The notes under the pieces were generated by a model. That model saw only the letters and a program-made list of their open reading frames with translations. It did no database searches and was not told the DNA's origin. From Eledone cirrhosa (lineage: Eukaryota), in assembly GCA_964016885.1 (NCBI GenBank), contig OZ024746.1:46500001-46564000 (forward strand): a DNA stretch of 64,000 nucleotides. The letters are read 5' to 3'. The translations under genes were made by a program, and so were the position numbers. Positions 23,671-37,662 of this stretch are shown one piece after another (within the stretch, counting starts at the first letter, position 1; the number at the start of each line of letters is the position of its first letter).

Positions 23671-23720
23671 ATATTACTCTTTTACTCTTTTACCTGTTTC
23701 AGCCATCCGGCTGAGGCCAT

Positions 23721-26488
23721 ATGTCAGTGTACAGGGTAAATGCAAGAATCATTAAACTCAGACTAGTCCTGAATAAAACAATTACCACAATAATATCAGC
23801 TTACGTACCCCAATCGGGGCTGTCAGACGAACTTAAGGATAGGTTTTACAAGTCCCTAATGCACACTACTGCTCTAACAGATGACAATGACTTCCTAATC
23901 ATTGCAGGAGATTTTAACGGACACGTAGGTAAACACTGCGATGGCTTCAATAGAGTACATGGAGGCCATGGGGTTGGCACAAGGAATGAGGAAGGATTCA
24001 GACTTCTAGAATTCTGTGACGCCAATGACATGTCGATATGTAACACAAACTTTAAAAAACCCAACAACCACCTGATCACCTATAGATCAGGGGAGCAATC
24101 TAGTCAGTTAGATTTTATCCTCATCAGAGGACGTGACAGTGAGGAATGTACATCCCAACATAGCTTAGTTGTCAGCGACCTCACGGTCAGAACTAGACGA
24201 ACCCGGAAACAGAGGCCAACCTGGAGAAGAAAGATCTGGAAGCTGAAAGTCCCTTCAACCAGTGACAGATTTAAAGATATATTACTCAACGCCTATGACA
24301 GTAAAGAAGAACAGATAGAGACATTTAATGTAGAAGAGAACTGGGAGTTCCTAAAAAATAATTTACTAGAGGCGACGGATGAGGTCTGTGGCTGGAGTAA
24401 GACCTCAAGCAGGAGGAGAGTGACTTGGTGGTGGAACAATAAGGTAGATGAAGCAGTTAAGGCCAAGAGACAGGCATGGAAAGAATGGAAGAACGGGGGG
24501 AGCAGGGTACATTACATAGAGACCAAGAGGGAAGCTAGGCGACAAGTATACTTAGCTAGAAGGGAAGCAGAGGATAAAAAATTCAAGCATGTTTTGCAAT
24601 GTGAGGACCAGAAACAGGAGGTATTCAAGATTGCGAGGCAGTGTGTCAGAGATAGTTGGGATGTCATTGGAGAGAAGTGTATCCGGAATGATAAAGGTGA
24701 GCTTGCCCTCACAAGTGCTGAGAAGAAAGATGCATGGAAGAGTCATTACTAAATGAGGAGAATGCATGGGAAGAAGAGACCCTACCCCAAGTAGACCCTA
24801 TAGAGGGACCAGCAGTACAAGTCAGCAGCAGCGTAGTAAGTAAGGCAATCAAAGATATGAAGAGGGGAAGGCAACCGGTCCATCGGGTATAGCTGCCGAG
24901 ATGCTGAAGGCATCTGGGTCTGTAGGTCACACTATAACCTCACGTATCGTTAACCAGGTAATACTAGAAGGTGCCATACCAAAAGATTGGTGCAGTAGCA
25001 TCATTGTCAACTGCTACAAAGGTAAAGGCGATGCACTAGATAGAGGAATCTATAGAAGTATAAAGTTGATGGACCAGGTCATGAAAGTAACAGAAAGAGT
25101 TATAGCACAGCTGATTAGGGACCGGGTGAAAATAGACGAGATGCAATTTGGGTTTGTACCAGGAAGAGGCACCACTGATACCCTCTTCCTTGTGAGTGAG
25201 GCAATTACAGGAAAAGTACCTAGCTAAAAGTAAGCCACTCTACTTGGCATTTGTCGACCTTGAGAAAGCCTTTGACAGAGTTCCACGTGCTGTAATCTGG
25301 TGGGCTCTTAGAAAACTAGGAGTAGATGAATGGCTTGTGAAAGCGGTACAAGCCATGTATAGGGGAGCAGTCAGCAAAGTTAGGATTAGCAATGAGTATA
25401 GCGAGGAATTTAGCGTACAGGTTGGGGTCCACCAGGGCTCTGTTCTTAGCCCTCTCCTGTTCATCATAGTCCTGCAGGCAATAACGGAGGAGTTTAAGAC
25501 CGGATGCCCATGGGAACTCCTGTATGCTGATGACCTCGCACTCATAGCTGAATCTATGGTAGAACTAGAGAAGAAATTCCAAACTTGGAAGCAGGGACTA
25601 GAAAGAAAGGGTCTCAAAGTCAACATGACAAAGACTAAGGTCCTTGTAAGTAGACGAGAAAACAGAACCCAGATCCCCTCAGGGAAATGGCCTTGCTCAG
25701 TATGTAGGAAAGGTGTAGGTAGGAACTCCATTCTCTGCCCCAAATGCAAACAATGGGTACACAAGAGATGTAGCGGGATCTCAGGAAGCTTAATTAAGAA
25801 TGTAGGATTCACATGCAGCAGCTGTGCTGAGACAGCAAGCAGCAAACAGCCACAGGAAACAAGTACCACCAATCTCTGGGAGGGCCCTGTAGAAACAGTA
25901 GACAGCTTCTGCTACCTAGGTGATCGAATTAGCAGCGGAGGTGGGTGTTCAGAAAGTACAATAACTAGGGTAAGAACGGGATGGAAGACGTTTAGGGAAC
26001 TACTACCACTGCTAGCTGCAAAAGGCTTCTCCCTCAGAATGAAAGGCAGACTGTATGATGCATGTATCCGAACAGCGATGTTGCATGGTAGTGAGACCTG
26101 GGTGCTGAAGGTGGAAGACTTACGTAGATTAGAGAGAAACGAAGCCTGCATGCTCCGATGTATGTGTAACAGTAATATACGTGAACGACAAAGCATAAAT
26201 GAATTGAGAGAGAGACTGAGCATAAGAGGAATCAAATGCTGTGTGCAGGAGAGGCGGTTGCGCTGGTATGGACATGTGATGCGTATGAAGGATGACAGCT
26301 GCATAAAAAGGTGCAGAGCACTAGAAGTCAATGGAAACCACGGAGTGGGGAGACCCAAGAAGACCTGGGATGAGGTGATAAAAGCCGACCTTACCCAATT
26401 ACACCTCTCAAAGGCGATGACACACAACCGTGACCTCTCGCGTCACGCAGTAATACAGAGTACCCGACCTCCCATGGGTACAAGCTGA
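23721..26488 (+). pseudogene. Disrupted endonuclease/reverse transcriptase ORF of the RTE LINE
   Basis: ORF pieces 23721-24752, 24901-25227 and 25196-26488. Frameshifts near 24750, 24863 and 25195 (gtga duplication). Confidence 0.93.
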
Positions 26489-26793
26489 AGCATATAGACA
26501 ATATGCCCCCACACCCCCCACCGCAAGGTGGTCGTGGAGGTGCCACGGCAAAAAAGCACCCAGCCCACACTGTAAAGTGGACGTGTAGGTGCCACGAAAA
26601 AGCACCCAGCACTCACTGTAAATGAGGTTGGTGTTAGGAAGGGCATCCAGCTGTAGAAATCAAGCCAAATCAGTTCCTGTATGAGCAAGGCATGGTCAGC
26701 CGACCAGACACTGCCCACAACAGGACAACCCGTCTAACCCATGCTAGTGTGGAAGAACGGACGTAAAACGGTGATGATGATGATGATGATGAT
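23721..26793 (+). mobile_element. RTE-clade LINE (family A), 5'-truncated within the endonuclease, frameshifted
   Basis: APE motifs (SAYVPQ, GDFNGHVG, DFIL, SQH). RT motifs (QFGFVPGRGTTD, DLEKAFD, QGSVLSPLLF, YADD at ~25523, YLG), RRLRWYGHV, 3' UTR and (GAT)n tail. Confidence 0.97.
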
Positions 26794-26794
26794 G

Positions 26795-26827
<33 letters not shown>

Positions 26828-29075
26828 TATGTTCAGATTGAGTGTTGGTTTTAAACACCAGCTATGTGTGTTTCTAATGTTGTTGTTAAGAGTTGCTACT
26901 AGTCAATTTGCAAAGGATGCAAAAGCTGTAAAAGAACAAAATTAGGATTGCAAATAATGTAATTTACATCAGATAGAAAAACAAAGGAAGGAAAGTACTT
27001 GATAAAAATGATGAAATCGGAAATTATGATCATTTGCTGTGATAGAGTTAAGAGATTATAGATCTGAAAATAAATGACAAGCACTAAGGAAATATTATCT
27101 CCTGTAATAACTTAGGACATAGTTAAAATGCAGTGAACAGAGAAAAATTCATAACAGGTTTTTTTTTTGTTTCTATCTTTTATTCATTAACATGTATTTC
27201 TGAGTGTTTTGGTTTTAAAAAAGTCTTTAGTTTTTTTTTTCATGTCAGTTTTCTATCAGTTTAAGCAATAAAATAATACACCTCCAAGATAAAACCCAAA
27301 CAAAATGTCTCGGAAATCTAAAATTGCTTAGATATGTCAATAATCTTTGCATTTTATAAGTGTGATCATGAGAATATCAAAATTCTATGTCTGGATGCAA
27401 ATTATTCCAAAAATATTTACAAAACATATTTATAAAATAACTTCAGGGCTGTATTGTTTCTGTAGACAAAATTATGCTTCATTTCTTGATAGAATTAAGG
27501 AGTGATATTGCTAAGTGAAATTTTCACGTTGGTTTAAGCAATGTATGAACTTACAAATAAACTATAATTCAGCAGCAGCAGTAGTAGTGTTATTGTTACT
27601 ACTTATTGGGAAAACAAAATGCCAGGGTTAAAATGATATTATGCAAAATATAAGCTCTACATCAAACAAGAAAACTGTACATAGGAGAATCACCAGTGTT
27701 AAAATGACTATTGTAACTTTACATTATTTGCATCAACCTCGAGTTTACACCTCAAAAATTTGACATGTTAGCCCAATTCAGCTTACAATAGACAATTGTA
27801 AAAACAATGCAATCAGATATGTATTGTTTGCCAACAAAATACTCAAAGAAAATTGAAAAAACAAGATTTTATGATGCCCATTCATTTTTTAAAAGACAGG
27901 TGAAGCAAATAAGATGAGAAGGCAACAAAGGGCAGCCAGCCTCAGTCTCTAGAGCAGAGGTTCTCAAATCCTTTTTTTGCAGATTTTCTATGATTTGCAG
28001 ATTTTCAAAAGAAGAGAAATTACCTAAACATCTTTAGGTGTTTTCACCGTGCAATTGATAAGGTAAGTAATTTACAAGAACACTTCAGAATAGATAATAT
28101 GCTGATATACAAAAATGGGACAGGCTGTTGATATGATTAAGATTTTATTGGTACCAAATGCTGTATTTAAATCACAACCAATACATGCTAATGGACCTTT
28201 TGGAATGAAAGAGTTTTGATATATGGATGAAGTGGATAAGAAAAGTGATGATGATGATATTTTTTTACTATGCCCAAGATGCAAATTTAAAAGGGAGGTA
28301 ATATCCAGTGTTTGTCATCAATATATCGATGCTATATATTATATTTTCTGCAGAATGACTGGAAGGAATCAAGCATTTGTTTGGATTTTAATTCTGAACT
28401 GCAAGTGATTAAATACATGTTTAAAATACTAACACAATCCAATTTTCATATATAAGCCTTCACCCATCATCTCTGATATTTAATGACTAGAAATGAAAGT
28501 AAAACCAAGTGTGTTTCAATAGCTAAGGTAGAATGGTTTCCACATTATTAACGTATATTTATCGGAGGTGTTAAGAAAGGAAATTTGGTAAGAAATCCTT
28601 ATAAATGCATTTAAACTGTAGCGGATATTTCAAATTACTTAAATATTTTTCAGAAAGTGTGATCTAAATGTATCCACAAAATAATATTAGAAATACTGTT
28701 TGTCTTATAAGATTATTTATATAGCTATGAATATTTTACCTCATATTTTTCTTCTTATTCTATGAAATGATATACTTCATCACATACAATGATACATTTA
28801 TCTCACTTGAAGCCTAATGGGATATGTTTTTATCTGTTGAATTAGTGCAAGGTTTAAAATTTGCATATTTTCAGAAAAATAAAATGCCTTTTAGATTCAT
28901 GAAAAGTTTCCACCAATCCTGTCTTTTTTTTTTTACATAAATTTAAGCTTATCATTAAAATGATAAGATGGCAAAAGAATTACCTACAGAGAACATATAT
29001 ATCACTCGATATGCAAATTAAGCTGCTCAGCCGTTAATATGCATAAGTATATACTTTCAGACGTTCCACCATCTG

Positions 29076-29136
29076 GCAGGAAGGTATATGATGCTGACGA
29101 TAGCTAATAAGCTTGAAACTAGTACATCGTTCCTGC
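29076..29136 (+). ncRNA. Type I hammerhead ribozyme, copy 1
   Basis: GCAGGA-aggtat-ATGATG-CTGACGA-t-AGCT-aata-AGCT-t-GAAAC-ta-GTA^CATCGT-TCCTGC. Predicted cut after 29124. Confidence 0.88.
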
Positions 29137-29508
29137 ATCAGTGTTGAACAAAAAGGTGACGTGGTTGTCTAAACACGGTACAGCGTAATTCGGGCTGTTT
29201 TTTTACAAACAAACCGAGTATTATAATAAATGTTCAGTAAACTGATACATGCATATATATATATATGTGTGCATGTATGTATATATATACATACTACTGT
29301 ACGTCTGTATACATATATGTATGTACGTATACATACATATATACTTACATTTAAGTAAGTGCCGTACTCAGAGTGAGAAATGAAATTTCGTTTCATTCTA
29401 TTTATCGTTTTCGGTGCGCCCGGCCGACTGATGCAATATGCAAATTAGGCTGCTCAGCCATTAATATGCATAAGGAAAGTATATACTTTCAGACGTTCAA
29501 CCATCTGG

Positions 29509-29567
29509 CAGGAAGGTATACGATGCTGACGATAGCTAATAAGCTTGAAACTAGTACATCGTTCCTG
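29509..29567 (+). ncRNA. Type I hammerhead ribozyme, copy 2
   Basis: CAGGA-aggtat-ACGATG-CTGACGA-t-AGCT-aata-AGCT-t-GAAAC-ta-GTA^CATCGT-TCCTG. Predicted cut after 29556. Confidence 0.9.
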
Positions 29568-31169
29568 TGTCAGTGTTGAACAAAAAGGTGACGTGGTTGC
29601 CTAAACACTGTACAGCGTAATTCGGGCTGTTTGTTTGTTTACAAACAAACAAACCGAGAATTATAATAAATGTTCGGTAAACCGATACATGCATATATAT
29701 ATATGTGTGCATGTATGTATATATACATACTACTGTACGTCTGTATACATATATGTATGTATGTATACATACATACTTACATTTAAGTAAGTGCCGTACT
29801 AAGAGTGAGAAATGAAATTTTGTTTCATTCTATTCCATTCATATATATATAGTTTATCACCTTTTACAAACAAAAAATAAAATTTTGTCTGTTTTGTAAA
29901 CTCCCTTTATGATATAGTCACACTATAATATTTTGTTTTTAAATCATTTTAGGGTCTTTTCTAAAATCTACATTGGCTAAGCTTAAAACATTACAGAGGA
30001 CTTTTAAGTTGCTGACTTTTGATTATTTTCTGAGGTCATTTTCTATCAGGGGCATGATCATCACACTTTTCATTTTCTTGATCCTCCAAACTCTGTAGAA
30101 TTAAATCACTTAATGAAGCATATGACTAATTAATTATTGAATCAGTGAGACATTTTCTATAGTGTTGATTAGCCAGCTAGAAATAGTAACTAGATCTCTC
30201 TCATTTGAATCACATATCTTTAAAAGGCAGCAGTACAACTTGTATAATGTATTGTGAGTGAAATAAAAGGGTAAGATGATCAAAGCTGAAAAATGTTTAA
30301 TCATAAATTTGATAATTAAGGCTGACATAGGGTTGAATAACTTCAACACATTAATAATCACCTTCATTTATTATGGTTGGCATAGATTCAACTTGTTTGC
30401 AAGTCTTAGTCCTGTAACTGGTTATTGCACTTGTATGAAATAAATTGGATGTTGATTAATAGATTTCATGCATTGCCGCCATTCTTTCAATTTTATTATC
30501 TATTTTTCTGAAAATTCCATATTCAGATTGTTAAAATGTTATTGACGCCTAACTCTATACATCTATAGTTCTTCATCAAATATGAATCTTTTCAGCCATT
30601 ACAAAACTAAATTTTTGAGATGCATCAGCTAACATCTAATGATGCATCTTTCTTAGATTTTACCATTATCTCATTGTAATTGATCAGTACTATAAACCAT
30701 CTTACAGTCTGACACAGTAACCTAATTCTGAACTTCTACAAAGCTTAAAGCTGTTAATTCAGAGAAAGAAAAACAATTTTATGGATTTCATTTTGTACAA
30801 TGACATAAGCAATGTAAGAGCTAAGAAATAACTTCATATTTGCATTGTAGCTAGGCTACAGACTAGGTTTATCAAATGCCTTCACTATTTTGTGGAATTT
30901 GTTCAAACTGGACAACATAGAACTCTTTTGATTAAATACAAGACTAAAGTAAATTGACTTGTGAAAATCATGTCCATTCTTTTTATTGAAAAACAAAGTT
31001 TAAATAAACAAAATAGACATAAGGGAAATTTCAATAAATATTAAAACTTATTTTAGTGTTAGATTTTGATTTAAATATATTTTTTATTGAGATTATTCAA
31101 TTTTTTTTTCAATATTTATTTAATAATTTCCTTAAGAAAATTAATATCAGTTACATGATAAAGTAGATA

Positions 31170-32690
31170 TGGTATGAAACAGATGCCCAGGAGAGTAGTA
31201 AGCACTATGAGAACACTTGATATCAATTCTACAAAATGTTCGAACAATTCCTTAGGTTTCCTAGGTGAGCTAGTTAGCAGTGTAATAGCTAGAAAGAAAT
31301 GAAGCAGAATGCTTGATTGGTGTGCGATTTTAATGTACAGGAATACTAGCTCTTTCAACTGCGCAGAGGGCTCTATAGAAATAGTGGACAGCTTCCGTTA
31401 CCTGGGTGACAAAATCAGCAGTGGGGGAGGGTGCTCTGAAAGTACAGTAGCTAGAGTCAGAACTGGATGGAAAAAGTTCAGAGAGCTTACACCACTATTA
31501 GCCGCTAAAGGGTTCTCCCTAAAAATGAAAGGCAGGTTGTATGATGCCTGCATACGAACAGCAATGTTGCATGGCAGTGAGACCTGGGCATTGTGTGCAG
31601 AGGATATACGCAGACTAGAGAGGAACGAAGCTTGCATGCTCCGCTGGATGTGTAATAGTAATATACGTGAACGGCAAAGCATAAACGAACTAAGGAAAAA
31701 ATTAGAAATAAGAGGGATCAGATGTTGTTTACTCGAGAGAAGGCTACGTTGGTATGGACACGTGATGCGCATGAAAGACGATAGCTGTATAACAAAGTGC
31801 AGGGCAATAAAGATAGACGGTAGCCACGGAATAGGCAGACCCAGAAAAACCTGGGACGAGCTGATAAATTCCGACCTCACACACTTACACCTCTCCAAGA
31901 CAATGTCACTGGACCGAGATCTTTGGCGGTACTCAGTAATAGAGAAGACCCGCCTTACCTAAATACATAGTAAAACCTACTACAGTCAGTAGGCATCTCT
32001 AACAAAATACACCCCCGTCCCACCACCCCTACCCCATCCACACCGCCCCCTTCTATGTAAAGTTATGTTGGTGCCACACCATCCAGGCTGAAACAAATGA
32101 GATCGTGTAGGTGTCACGACAAAAAACACAGTCCACGCTATAATGTGGCCGTGTAGGCAACACGGTAAAAACCTCCCATTCCCACACTGTAAATGTGGTT
32201 GGTGTTAGGAATGGCATCCAGCTGTAGAAAACCCGCCAGACAGTCCACGCTGTAATGTGGTCATGTAGGCAACACGGTAAAAACCTCCCAGACCCACACT
32301 GTAAATGTGGTTGGTGTTAGGAAGGGCATCCAGCTGTAGAAAACCTGCCAGACAGTCCTATGCGAGCAAGATAATCACTCTTGCCTCAAGTGGGAAAACC
32401 CTCGTTCAAACCCATGCAAGCGTGGAACACGGACGTTAAACGTTGATGATGATGATGATGATGAGGAACATTGAAGCACAAGTGAGTAAGAAAACACTTG
32501 TGATGAGTATGGAGGATGAAAGCTGTATAATGAAGTGTAGGTCACCCAAATTACATAGAACTTGTAGAAGAGGTAGATGCAAGAAGTACCGAAATGAAGG
32601 AGTGAAAAAGGATCTCATAATGCTGAGAATCACAAATGAGATGACATATGACCACAATCCTTAGTGGCATACAGTGCTGGAGAACTAGCC
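31170..32690 (+). mobile_element. Old RTE relic split by a younger RTE insertion
   Basis: Left piece ~31170-31340 (FLGELVS, SVIAR, LERNEA, ..NVQ). Right piece 32464-32690 (VMSMEDESCIMKCRS..RGRCKK..VKKDL). Confidence 0.6.
31339..32463 (+). mobile_element. RTE-clade LINE (family B), 5'-truncated
   Basis: Open ORF end DSFRYLGD...RRLRWYGHVMRM...EKTRLT* (to 31962), 3' UTR and (GAT)n tail. Nearly identical to 34990-36000 on minus. Confidence 0.96.
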
Positions 32691-33979
32691 AATGAAACAT
32701 AGGTAAACAAGCCTTGAAATTATGGTAGTGATAGAAGCTGGCAGATATAATACATCTACATTTGGGTCTTAAGCCTAATAGGTATCTAAGACTCTACAAG
32801 CCACAACCAACTCTTTGAAAACCCCCCTCATCTTAGATGTTCCCTCACCCACTTTCCTATTCACTGCACCATACCAGCCATGTAATGAGGGAAATCATTA
32901 AACATGTTTATACCCAATTTCCCCAGCTTTATCTCACTATCTACATCTCTCTTCCATCATGACAACTATGTATGAAGAACTGCACAAAATCTGCTTGTAT
33001 CTGACATATCCTAGCATTATCATTTTCTGCGTCCCTTCTTCCAATGCCACTTTTTATTGTTATCCAGCACTCTCTTGCACCATCACACAGAAGTGCATGA
33101 GTGAGAGAACCCCTGTTCTATAGCTAGCCTACCACCATTAATAATAATGCTATTACTGATAGTATTATCATTATTATTATCAACTCACAACATTTCAATA
33201 TTTTAGAACATCATTATTATTTTTCTTTAGATCACATATTCTTGATACCACTTCTTATATATTATAATATGTTATATACAGATACATGCATTTCACCTAC
33301 CCTACAATTCCAGTATTTATTTGTTTGTGTACTAACTCACTTATTTAGTTCTTTACTCACCTACATTTAAATACCATCTTCCTATGTACACCCAAACATT
33401 CTTACTCTTACTTCTGTTCCCCACCCCCTCATGGACACTAGATTTTCTCTTTTGGTGTTTTCTTCTTTTCTTTGTACTGCCTCCTTCTTTTCTGACCACT
33501 GCCACCCTCCTGCTCCTCCTGTTCCACTAGTGCATCTATCCATCTCTTGAATCTCACCCAACACCCTCATATCGCCACATAAACACAAAAGTGTCTATGA
33601 ACCAGCCAAAACACCACACCACCGCCACCTCCATCAAGTGATATACCCTACTATCATTCTTTCATCTCCTCAACCCCTTTCTTCCTTCAAAATTCTTCCG
33701 CTCACCTATCCCATATACCTAAACATTTTTTCTTGCAAAACCACCAATCAAAATGAAGTAAAACCGACCAACATAAATTAATGAGAACTGATATGTATTT
33801 TTTCAAATATGTAAGGGAATAGTTCTGTCATTACCATAACAGAAGTCCCACAAGTTTTTGATTCCAGAGTCAGGCCAGATAGATACAGATCAAGCCTTGA
33901 GCTGTTAAATCATGAAAAATGAAATAAATGAAATGACGATCTAACACCACATCCTTTTTATTATTATCATTACACTCAA

Positions 33980-34667: not shown

Positions 34668-37662
34668 TCTGTAACTCTGTGTTGAGCAGAGTTATGGGCC
34701 GGAAGTTGCCTATGTCATCCCCCTTGTTCTCGTCCTTCCTGACTAACGTGATTACGCCCTTGGTCACAGAACTGGGAATTCTCCCGTTCTGCTGCCAGCT
34801 GCAGTAGACCGCTTTCAGGAGACCGGAGACAAAGTCCGGCCTTGCTACGTAAAATTCGTAGGGTAGACCGTCGAGACCTGGAGATTTGCGTTTTCTGCAT
34901 TGGCTCAGCGTGTTCTCTATCTCAACGGCCGAAATCGGCCTTTCACAGAACTTCGCGTCGCTGTCCGAGAGTCGCGGTAGGCCATCGAGGTCATCATCAT
35001 CATCATCGTTTAACGTCCATGTTCCACGCTTGCATGGGTTTGGATGGAAGTTTTCCCACTTGAGGCAAGAGTGGTTGTCTTGCTCGCATAGGACTGTCTG
35101 GTAGGTTTTCTACAGCTGGATGTCCTTCCTAACACCAACCACATTTACAGTGTGGGACTGGGAGGTTTTTACCGTGCTGCCTACACGGCCACATTACAGC
35201 GTGGACTGTGTGTTTTTTTGTCGTGACACCTACACGATCTCATTTGTTTCGGCCTGGATGTTGTGGCACCAACATAACTTTACATTGAAAGGGGCGGTGT
35301 GGATGGGGTGAGGGTGTGGGACGGGGGTGTATTTTGTTAGAGATGCCTACTGACTGTAGTAGGTTTTACTTTGTATTTAGGTAAGGCGTGTCTTCTCTAT
35401 TACTGAGTGCTGCCAAAGATCTCGGTCCAGTGACATTGTCTTGGAGATGTGTAAGTGTATGAGGTCGGAGTTTATAAGGTGGTCCCAGGTTTTTCTGGGT
35501 CTCCCTACTCCGTGGCTACCGTCTATCTTTATTGCCCTGCACTTTTTTATACAGCTGTCGTCTTTCATGCGCATTACGTGACCATACCAACGTAGCCTTC
35601 TCTCAAGTAAACAACATCTGATCCCTCTTATTTCTAATTTTTCCCTTAGTTCGTTTATGCTTTGCCGTTCGCGTATATTACTATTACACATCCAGCGGAG
35701 CATGCAAGCTTCGTTCCTCTCTAGTCTGCGTATATCCTTTGCACACAATGCCCAGGTCTCACTGCCATGCAACATTGCTGTTCGTATGCAGGCATCATAC
35801 AGCCTGCCTTCCATTTTTAGGGAGAACCCTTTAGCGGCTAATAGTGGTATAAGCTCTCTGAACTTTTTCCATCCAGTTCTGACTCTAGCTACTGTACTTT
35901 CAGAGCACCCTTCCCCACTGCTGATTTTGTCACCCAGGTAACGGAAGCTGTCCACTATTTCTATAGAACCCTCTGCGCAATTGAAAGAGCTAGTATTTTG
36001 TGGGCTCTTGCTGCTACTTATTGCACCAGAGCACCGGCCACATGTAAAATCTATGTTCTTAGTTAGCTTACCTATGATCCCACTACATCTTTTATGCACC
36101 CATACTTTGCATTTGGGACATAAAATGGAGTTTCTACGTACGCCTTTCCTACACAGTGAGCATGGCCATTTCCCGGAAGGGACCGGCGCCTTATTTTCTT
36201 TCCTACAAACTAGAACTTTAGTCTTAGCCAGGTTAATTTTAAGGTCTTTTGATTCTAGGCCGTGCTTCCATGTTTGGAATTTCTTCTCTAGCTCGGCCAT
36301 TGATTCAGCTATGAGCGTTAATCATCTGCGTATAGGAGTTCCCATGGGCAGCCGGTCTTGAACTCCACTGTTATAGCCTGAAGGGCAATAATAAATAGTA
36401 GGGGGCTAAGAACAGAGCCCTGATGAACACCAACTTTTACGCTAAACTCTTCACTATATTCGTTGTTAATTCTAACCTTGCTGACTGTTTCTTTATACAT
36501 GGCTTGTATAGCTCTCACAAGCCATTCATCAACACCTAGTTTTCTAAGAGCCCACCAGATAATGGAACGGGGGACTCTGTCGAAGGCTTTCTCCAAGTCG
36601 ACGAAAGCTAAGTATAGGGGTTTACTTTTAGCTAGGTACTTCTCCTGTAGTTGTCGTACAATGAAAAGAGCGTCTGTGGTACTTTTGCCTGACACAAACC
36701 CGAACTGCATTTCATCTAGATCGATTCTCTCTCTGATTAGTTGCGCTATTACTTTTTCCGTGACCTTCATGACCTGGTCGATTAATTTAATGCCTCTATA
36801 GTTACTCCTATCTAGGGCATCTCCTTTACCCTTGTAGCAGTTAATGATGATGCTGCTACGCCAGTCCTTCGGAACAACCCCATTCTGTATGACTTGGTTT
36901 ACTATCCGGGTGACCATGGTGTGTCCCACCGTTCCAGAGGCTTTCAGCATCTCAGCAACTATTTCCGAAGGCCCAGCCGCCTTACCCGTCTTCATATGAA
37001 CCAAAATCCATAGCCCCTCACGGCGTGCCGCCCTGCCCAAACAGTTGAGCAATGTGCCGCTGAAAAGCCGCGCACATTTGCTTCGGCTCACGTATCACGC
37101 GTCCATCTTGGTCCTTCAAAGACCGAATCGTGGACTTGTTGCCACTTTTCCCCTCCGTCACTCAGGCCCAGCTAACAGCTTTGGCTCCCACGTTTCCCAG
37201 AGCACATATTTTGCTTCTGACAATGCAGCCTTCATGCTTTGCATCGAAGAACTGGTCCAAGGCCGTTCTCGTCGCTAGCACGCTGGCTACGTTGCCACTC
37301 CTAAGTGCCTCTTCTACTTTATCTACCAGGTCCTTTTCGGTCTTATTTCTATCTAACACTAATTATTTACTAAAACCTATCGAGTCTAATCTAACTGCCC
37401 TCTTGAGAGAGTACCACCATCTGTTGTTGACAATGGCCCCCGTCTTGTGCTGCTTAACTAAAGTGCTAATCCGTCTACTGTAGGCTTTGCATGTCGGTAA
37501 CAACAAGTTCAGCTTCCAGTAGCTGGGTCCCTGTCTATGGGTTTTGTCAAGGTTGACTAAGCAGGTCACTAATTTGTGATCTGAATAGGCAACCATGAAC
37601 ATTTGTGGACAGCTTAACATATCCCTATCCTTCTTTCTAACTAGAACCCTATCTAGGTACGA

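Follow-up and report, generated by a model that had tools for sequence, protein, structure and literature searches.

In the 64-kb window of Eledone cirrhosa DNA (64,000 nucleotides) lies an aged insertion, 1.94 units long, of an abundant non-coding retrozyme, likely pasted in by Penelope-type machinery, probably from a circular RNA, and likely carrying its own promoter. We assign this joint explanation, drawn from sequence comparison, a probability of roughly 0.8. The element belongs to a known and already published kind, the animal non-LTR retrozymes, with testable extras. Within its large family, the window locus is an ordinary, older copy. Its first promoter-like block is damaged, and it is unlikely that the locus still produces a 432-nt circle.

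The element in the window

The hammerhead element spans 29002-29842, wider than the 29009-29834 of the initial annotation, which had described two head-to-tail copies of a non-coding unit of about 430 bp. The repeat is indeed non-coding, with a family majority unit of 438 nt, and there are two hammerhead units, but they do not form a clean dimer: copy 1 is truncated at its 5' end and begins at unit position 32 (Table 1). Copy 1 differs from the family majority by 14 mismatches over 393 aligned bases and copy 2 by 9 over 431, with a short TA run directly 3' of copy 2. Two CpG-site changes are common to both copies, and each of them occurs in just 1 of 40 other full units. The T7 run at 29198-29204, inside the predicted monomer, is absent from the family majority. 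Other insertions use an inner fixed 3' end at unit 374-389, about 29775-29790 here, at the 3' edge of the internal hairpin of copy 2; the ‘tail’ beyond it contains a terminal hairpin that also occurs in a second family. Three sequencing runs, behaving as DNA of one sample, run into the element from both flanks and confirm the family variants. No exon was recognised near the locus.

Table 1. Features of the hammerhead element, in window coordinates.
Feature	Positions	Strand	Basis
Copy 1, 5'-truncated unit (unit positions 32-433)	29002..29402	+	alignment to family majority
Promoter-like block of copy 1, damaged	29010..29053	+	motif comparison
Hammerhead 1, including the extension of stem I; core 29094-29124, cut predicted after 29124	29063..29149	+	sequence and fold
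Predicted cut-to-cut monomer, 432 nt	29125..29556	+	fold
AT/ACAT microsatellite-like internal hairpin, copy 1	29245..29345	+	sequence and fold
Copy 2, complete unit up to the outer fixed 3' end	29403..29842	+	alignment to family majority
12-mer TATGCAAATTAG, PSE-like (putative function), same sequence as the motif at -78 in a host U6 gene	29437..29448	+	
TATA-like GTATATA, 42 nt after the 12-mer of copy 2	29479..29485	+	
Hammerhead 2, stem I reaching ~24 bp when folded; core 29526-29556, cut predicted after 29556	29495..29581	+	
Microsatellite-like internal hairpin, copy 2	29685..29785	+	
One-sided ‘tail’ of Penelope type (~60-65 nt), from the inner to the outer fixed end	29776..29842	+	

Predicted structure of the hammerhead ribozymes

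The sequence CTGACGA at 29094-29100 and 29526-29532 marks two type I hammerhead cores. In both, stem II is formed by AGCT-AATA-AGCT and closed by a U·U pair, followed by GAAA, the palindromic ACTAGT and a GUA triplet, while stem I pairs (A)C/TGATG with CATCGT and extends across an AGGTAT bulge through CAGGA:TCCTG. Both cores, with their stems and bulge, lie where the initial annotation had placed them, and so do its two predicted cut sites, 432 nt apart. A type I motif descriptor run over both strands of the window, a check it had proposed, matches only the core sites at 29094 and 29526, giving exactly two predicted hammerheads. The Rfam search that it had also proposed returned no hammerhead match at E<=10 in 26000-33000. 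Rfam miRNA matches in the same interval are microsatellite artefacts below gathering scores.

The U·U at the base of stem II had been regarded as a possible cause of lowered activity. This pair is present in 100 of the 100 matches listed for a pattern that leaves these positions free, and the axolotl ribozyme HHR_Amex2, which has the same mismatch, is reported to cleave, better as a dimer (PMC7229834); it is therefore no defect of the window copy. Closing stem III within one copy is calculated to cost 5.4 kcal/mol, and the two-copy duplex to gain 6.8, in keeping with action as a dimer. Folded as circles with the ribozyme free to fold, the predicted monomers have minimum free energies better than those of shuffled sequences in 4/4 cases (z -6.2 to -8.7, 30 shuffles each), the window monomer scoring z -6.2. 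In Xenopus, however, only one of nine predicted retrozyme dimers is reported to cleave in vitro (10.64898/2026.07.22.740005).

The family in the genome

The repeat consists of short non-coding tandem units of 420-540 nt in many dispersed copies, without LTR or ORF. Genome-wide, 26,189 matches have an intact core (control 0), which makes the family a sizeable part of the genome's repeat content; searched exactly, the 36-nt core is found 3,352 times and its reversed version not once. When copies are chosen by their tail, 17 of 18 retain an intact core. Stem I covaries between subfamilies: its third pair is A-U in 96, G·U in 61 and U·G in 31 of 198 copies, counted as copies and not as independent events, and U·G in 11, G·U in 6 and C-G in 1 of the 18 tail-chosen copies. 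Units in young arrays differ from one another by 0-3 bases, and a long array of about 30 units lies at C1:5.74 Mb. A second family, with units of 461-468 nt and a tail 25-mer that has 7,230 matches, keeps the core, the palindrome and the bulge and differs in stems I and II; a third family is represented by two copies carrying the same 12-mer described below.

Insertion ends and mobilisation

The 3' ends of the insertions are fixed at two sites about 60 nt apart, with 147 of 177 segment ends from 97 loci falling into two zones (77 at unit 421-3 and 70 at 361-400); these loci were selected by intact core, so that 5' ends inside unit 129-164 are hidden. Head-to-head arms are present at 56 of the 97 loci. 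Both ends lie in the zones at 41 two-armed loci, and 38 of these use one of each end, where 50% would be expected (p 5e-9). A TA or TC run is found within 12 nt of 117 of 149 zone ends, a raw frequency without background control. Partial tandems, an inverted 5'-truncated arm, a one-sided tail and ragged 5' ends recur across insertions. A seeming cluster of 5' ends at unit 34 arose only because the atypical copy 2 had served as reference. According to Frangieh et al. 2024 (PMC11167929), a Penelope protein cuts both strands of AT-rich DNA, and its reverse transcriptase (RT) begins at two internal RNA sites, between which the ‘tail’ lies.

The genome contains intact RT+GIY-YIG frames of 844-1,096 aa. 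The element has no ORF, as had been noted for RT, and none of 117 loci joins the unit to a Penelope ORF; copies regularly attached to such an ORF, the ordinary pLTR case raised by the initial annotation, are not what these loci show. Any Penelope protein match accompanies just one of the 117 loci, 680 nt away, and the copies L091 and L092, located near GIY-YIG frames, are separated from them by their own TA flanks. The element tail matches none of the 7 tails of examined Penelope loci beyond shuffles (best p 0.11), and a 27-nt likeness to the inner end of one Penelope family (p 0.11-0.26) is a lead only. A 3' end or pLTR shared with an autonomous partner gave no significant match in 40 stretches (150 scored GIY-YIG matches among more than 10,000 candidates). 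The autonomous Penelope families examined carry other hammerheads and tails. The view of a non-autonomous hammerhead element moved in trans by a Penelope-type RT is supported by the Penelope-type ends, the missing ORF and the intact RT+GIY-YIG ORFs, and the insertion anatomy makes it very probable that Penelope-type machinery mobilises the family.

The promoter-like block

Each unit carries the 12-mer of host U6/U6atac/MRP genes together with a TATA-like box. In the three top U6 loci, the best U6atac and RNase MRP, TATG[CG][AT]AAT[TG]AG lies at -77 to -79 and GTATA at -31; the motif is absent at that place in 3/3 U2 genes, in RNase P and in 19/19 lower-scoring U6/U6atac matches. The background is one exact 12-mer match in 1.39 Mb of masked flanks. 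All three families have the same 12-mer upstream of the hammerhead, with the TATA-like box 40-42 nt later: the distance is 42 nt in 130 of 149 copies and 41 nt in the second family, and the host spacing of 46-48 occurs in 0 of the 149. In copy 1, the 12-mer has one mismatch (TATGCAAATTAA) and the TATA-like box follows just 37 nt later through a 5-nt deletion. Applied to copy 2, the host -31 rule would place +1 at A29510, where the bulged stem I has its 5' edge.

When the regions upstream of snRNA genes were aligned locally to the unit without anchoring, no significance was reached (p 0.05-0.82), whereas the anchored motif test was significant. By eye, no DSE-like CCTCCC box, which is present upstream of host U6 and U2, was seen in the unit, and internal A/B boxes were not convincing; the classical octamer-plus-PSE layout of U2 genes was not found in it. 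The 12-mer forms one arm of a predicted RNA hairpin, and in the young array L171 two changes have altered it, both improving that predicted hairpin. In young subfamilies the next unit is preceded by T6-T8 runs, which equal host Pol III terminators in length and disfavour simple Pol III read-through. The motif match slightly tips the balance towards a working internal promoter of U6 type.

Circular or linear template

Segments longer than one unit make up 59 of 177. For 5' ends in the region hidden by the core selection, the evidence comes from genome-wide 16-mer counts. These fall smoothly, with 32,848 immediately 3' of the cut, 29,614 immediately 5' of it and 26,179 ahead of the predicted start, leaving room for about 5% of stops at the cut site. 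The absence of a coverage drop at the cut and the arms exceeding one unit fit a circular or an uncut multimeric template. Within a locus, units concur at polymorphic sites (0.095 versus 0.357 between loci; 19 loci, permutation p 2e-4). At old loci 24 of 74 copies have their nearest neighbour within the locus, a figure uninformative as to a single-template origin. Hammerhead cleavage is reportedly not needed for Penelope insertion, uncut RNA being the main substrate (PMC11167929), so a circle is not required. The sequence patterns nevertheless make circular RNA the fairly probable template of the family's insertions.

Proposed mechanism and alternative explanations

Transcription would start near the 5' edge of one hammerhead and run into the next unit. 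Two hammerheads would pair through the palindromic stem III, cut and release a monomer carrying the promoter of the next unit, which a host RtcB-type ligase may close; such ligation is established in vitro for axolotl and mussel retrozymes (PMC7229834). The Penelope protein would then nick both strands of a TA-rich target, and reverse transcription from two internal RNA sites about 60 nt apart would copy round the template for a variable length, yielding one or two arms. A broader reading, of a self-promoting retrozyme superfamily with a captured U6-type host promoter, retained in each round because the RNA cuts itself into promoter-carrying circles that Penelope copies from two fixed starts, is tentative. 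If true, tens of thousands of insertions would form a natural record of Penelope twin priming on circular RNA.

Two steps of this scheme have competitors. The 12-mer and TATA-like box could be a relic or an RNA-structure or protein-binding feature, with the repeats read only via read-through from host genes, as proposed for retrozymes in general (PMC7761336). This has a considerable chance, somewhat short of even: the spacing is 4-6 nt shorter than in 5/5 host genes, the 12-mer pairs in the predicted hairpin, T6-T8 runs occur in young subfamilies, and the unit, unlike host U6 and U2, has no visible CCTCCC box. Against it, the exact 12-mer is kept in three families with differing flanks and pairing partners, the order of 12-mer, TATA-like box and hammerhead is constant, the background amounts to a single match in 1.39 Mb, and in newt satellite 2 Pol II is driven by a promoter of snRNA type (as cited in PMC2220036). 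The template, for its part, could be an uncut linear multimer from tandem arrays or host transcripts, inserted by the same Penelope machinery, with a weak or protein-gated hammerhead and circles minor. Insertion proceeds normally with hammerhead mutants, and RNA in vitro is mostly uncut (PMC11167929), arrays as long as that at C1:5.74 Mb exist, a template that is dimeric or derived from an array would suit the ABAB array L172, and the U·U together with a 2-bp stem III predict slow cleavage. We nonetheless consider this rather unlikely, given the stable closed folds predicted for the monomers and the 0-3 base differences within young arrays, as expected from one circle, although recent array growth would give the same. 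The core is moreover conserved across subfamilies and, with compensated stems, in three families, which implies a role for cleavage at some point in the cycle.

The remaining explanations concern the nature of the unit itself. That it is a solo pseudo-LTR, or the 3' end of an autonomous Penelope element after 5' truncation, agrees with the Penelope-type ends and with the resemblance of Xenopus retrozymes to pLTRs (10.64898/2026.07.22.740005). It is very improbable, as what lies upstream is another unit, an inverted arm or flank DNA and never coding sequence (117 loci), L091 and L092 are cut off from the GIY-YIG frames by TA flanks of their own, and the hammerheads and tails of the examined autonomous families are different ones. 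Least probable of all is a satellite spread at the DNA level (Helitron, MITE or unequal crossover), its hammerhead-like motif due to descent or chance: long near-identical arrays would suit it, whereas fixed 3' and ragged 5' ends, head-to-head arms, a one-sided tail, the lack of terminal inverted repeats at the fixed ends and ribozyme covariation speak against it, as does a weak sense-strand A>G excess (45 versus 22 T>C; uncorrected p 0.027, from one test out of five).

Relation to known retrozymes

Literature on hammerheads and retrozymes in octopus and other cephalopods, Penelope links and U6-type promoters yielded no description of the family, which Repbase or Dfam may name; the available text of a giant squid paper gives 235 Rfam hammerhead matches without analysis (PMC6962438). 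Like the metazoan non-LTR retrozymes of coral, mussel and axolotl (Cervera and de la Peña 2020, PMC7229834), the family has non-coding low-GC tandem units, one type I hammerhead per unit, thousands of copies and a self-paired monomer. Its units are longer (420-540 versus about 170-400 nt), its Penelope link comes from insertion anatomy rather than co-occurrence, and its circles are only predicted. For vertebrate retrozymes, Li, Clavereau and Pollet 2026 (10.64898/2026.07.22.740005) reach the same conclusion on the mobiliser, non-autonomous Penelope derivatives; their Xenopus evidence is co-distribution and pLTR similarity, in contrast to the insertion ends used here, where no pLTR match was found in the Penelope tails and GIY-YIG stretches examined, and no mollusc is sampled in the available text. 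EN+ Penelope-like elements (Craig et al. 2021, PMC8557442; PMC11167929) share the partial tandems, inverted 5'-truncated arm, one-sided tail, microsatellite or AT-rich targets, two internal RT start sites and short palindromic stem III. Unlike them, the element has no ORF, its unit repeats on itself, and its tail is about 60-65 rather than 30-40 nt.

The mobiliser of retrozymes has so far been proposed from co-occurrence and pLTR similarity, and the family adds a base-level prediction, two RT start sites; its compact 440-nt RNA is a candidate template for Penelope reverse transcriptase. Retrozymes in general seem to lack a promoter (as described in available parts of PMC7761336), newt and schistosome repeats excepted, whereas the present family has the promoter-like block and predicts transcription starting near A29510. 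In newt satellite 2 and Schistosoma SM-alpha, the promoter likewise lies inside the hammerhead repeat, at the 3' end of the cleaved monomer; it is an snRNA promoter used with Pol II in the newt and a Pol III promoter in Schistosoma (as cited in PMC2220036 and PMC6765202). The motif of the element matches the host U6/U6atac/MRP class and not the U2 class, with a spacing shorter than the host's.

Structure of the hammerhead element

Both hammerheads lie at the positions given in the initial annotation, and a descriptor check of the window retrieves these two and no further ones, with the predicted cuts 432 nt apart, after 29124 and after 29556. The limits first proposed for the element, 29009-29834, are corrected to 29002-29842; the tandem pair does comprise two copies, of which copy 1 begins at unit position 32 and is not full-length. 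Copy 2 terminates at the outer 3' end of the family, inside a short TA run. No coding frame is found inside the element, as claimed, and the ribozyme was not scored by Rfam models. Copies 1 and 2 carry 14 and 9 substitutions relative to the family majority, plus indels, indicating an older insertion. The window also holds broken LINE-type frames that include stretches resembling an endonuclease and a YADD reverse transcriptase (labelled by eye).

The core is intact in 17 of 18 copies selected via the tail (the one-sided ~60-65 nt between the inner and outer fixed 3' ends) and not via the core. At the third pair of stem I, 188/198 copies (copies, not independent events) have A-U, G·U or U·G, depending on the subfamily, the other pairs being nearly fixed; the predicted fold extends stem I to ~24 bp. 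The U·U mismatch at 10.1-11.1, the base of stem II, was correctly noted as a deviation but is family-wide, occurring in 100/100 of the matches listed for a looser pattern and in all 18 tail-selected copies. Axolotl HHR_Amex2 cleaves with the same mismatch: 22% of the monomer is cut within an hour, and the dimer is cut to a greater extent (PMC7229834). Stem III is predicted to cost 5.4 kcal/mol inside one copy and to gain 6.8 as a two-copy duplex, in agreement with dimer cleavage (PMC6765202), and whole monomers are predicted to fold as circles (z -6.2 to -8.7). Counting against activity, only one of nine Xenopus retrozyme dimers cleaves in vitro (10.64898/2026.07.22.740005). Self-cleavage by the element is a prediction.

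Family size and related families

The 3.0-Gb genome contains 3,352 exact matches of the 36-nt core and 26,189 matches to the looser pattern (control 0), whose only fixed positions are in the catalytic core, in stem III and in part of stem I. The majority unit is 438 nt long, with a median divergence of 3.9% in 41 full units. Arrays are formed by younger subfamilies (420-427 and 466-538 nt), and within them units differ by 0-3 bases. One array holds two unit types in ABAB order, differing by 0-4 bases inside a type and 14-16 between types, which fits a dimeric template or later duplication.

In a second family, of 461-468 nt, the stems differ and the core, palindrome, bulge and hairpin of the tail are all retained; it forms ~30-unit arrays, with G-C at the stem II base and a GUU triplet, and its tail 25-mer has 7,230 matches. 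A third, older family has a GUC triplet and a longer stem III.

Locations of the element, related families and side observations (L-numbers, genome stretches examined; G000:C1 and the like, contigs of Eledone cirrhosa)
Feature	Location	Remark
Broken LINE-type frames	window 23715-26488 (+), 31303-31962 (+), 35377-37094 (-)	
Array, ABAB order	L172 (G000:C1:19.315-19.317 Mb)	
Second hammerhead family	L243-L267 (G000:C1:5.738-5.753 Mb), L050:2340-2420, L091:5990-6157	
Third hammerhead family	L298:1844-2100 (minus strand), L285:1501-1640	
Young autonomous Penelope family	L081, L082, L086, L088, L089, L092	938-aa RT+GIY-YIG frame
Another Penelope family	L084, L085, L090, L096	AGTACT palindrome
RNase P RNA gene	L236 (G000:C24)	
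U6 tandem array	G000:C19:31.78-31.84 Mb	~1.8-kb spacing
U2 tandem array	C3:307.35-307.45 Mb	~2.2-kb spacing

Mobilisation and classification

Ends were mapped at 97 loci (29 best DNA hits and 68 exact-core places on contig C1). Segment 3' ends fall within two zones ~60 nt apart in 147/177 cases, with 5' ends scattered round the unit. Head-to-head two-armed loci number 56/97; where both ends lie in zones, 38/41 have one from each, the other 15 having one end unresolved. TA or TC runs adjoin 117/149 zone ends, a count without a background rate. Partial tandem, inverted arm and one-sided tail together are the anatomy of Penelope-like elements (PMC8557442). In vitro, AT-rich DNA is cut on both strands by a Penelope protein, which begins copying at a pair of internal RNA sites on either side of the tail (PMC11167929), a two-start result matched by the paired 3' zones.

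Intact RT+GIY-YIG frames are present in the genome. None of the 117 loci examined has an element copy joined to such a frame, and one has a distant Penelope match, so the reading as an ordinary Penelope pseudo-LTR is unlikely. The proposed mobilisation in trans by a Penelope-type RT is backed by this anatomy, by which the element is, as read from sequence, a non-autonomous Penelope passenger. Comparison with seven Penelope-locus tails identified no partner family. Penelope passengers have been argued for vertebrates on other grounds (10.64898/2026.07.22.740005).

The element shows all the sequence-testable features of animal non-LTR retrozymes (PMC7229834), and would work like them. It is a known kind of system in a new variant form; a literature search, with repeat databases and some supplements outside its reach, found no description of the family.

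In the young autonomous Penelope family the one-sided tail is ~65 nt long, and the hammerhead is a variant with, by eye, apparently U3-A8 replacing C3-G8; another family carries a minimal hammerhead and palindrome 3' of the ORF.

RNA template and promoter-like block

Segments exceed one unit in 59/177 cases and two units in 9/177. Genome-wide 16-mer counts fall smoothly from 32,848 to 29,614 across the cut site and on down to 26,179 across the predicted transcription start, so a linear monomer released by cleavage and a primary transcript of one unit can both be set aside as the main template. At polymorphic sites, same-locus units agree far more than units from different loci, and two rare CpG-site changes are common to both window copies. 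An uncut multimer would also explain these data, uncut RNA being sufficient for Penelope insertion (PMC11167929); a circle accounts for them together with the conserved ribozyme, and we give a circular RNA template a probability of about 0.65. Separately, A>G changes on the sense strand exceed T>C changes family-wide at unit positions 41-280 (45 against 22; uncorrected p 0.027), which hints weakly that the RNA template is edited.

Because the unit opens with an octamer-like word, snRNA-type promoters were tested; a newt hammerhead repeat has an snRNA promoter used by Pol II (as cited in PMC2220036). The host genes for U6 (three top loci), for U6atac and for RNase MRP have TATG[CG][AT]AAT[TG]AG at -77 to -79, together with GTATA at -31; the motif is absent at that position in U2 and RNase P genes and in 19 U6/U6atac matches of lower score. 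An exact copy of the 12-mer lies in the element at 29437-29448 (background, 1 in 1.39 Mb), with GTATATA 42 nt downstream; the second family, and two copies of the third, likewise carry the 12-mer upstream of their hammerheads. The host -31 rule would place +1 at A29510, where the bulged stem I has its 5' edge. This match to the U6/U6atac/MRP class makes the block a candidate promoter. Against a working U6-type promoter, the 12-mer-to-TATA distance is 4-6 nt shorter than in host genes, failing the spacing test; the 12-mer doubles as a hairpin arm and has drifted in one young array, and T6-T8 runs precede the next unit in young subfamilies, an objection that would fall if Pol II used the block, as in newt. 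In the window, the 12-mer of copy 1 has a mismatch and lies 37 nt from its TATA-like box, and a T7 run is present; this locus therefore probably cannot yield the 432-nt monomer by Pol III.

Upstream of the RNase P RNA gene the U6-type motif is absent and a ATCAGTGG box is present, as in U2 genes, a hint that RNase P RNA is transcribed in the Pol II manner. Host U6 and U2 genes also occur in tandem arrays.
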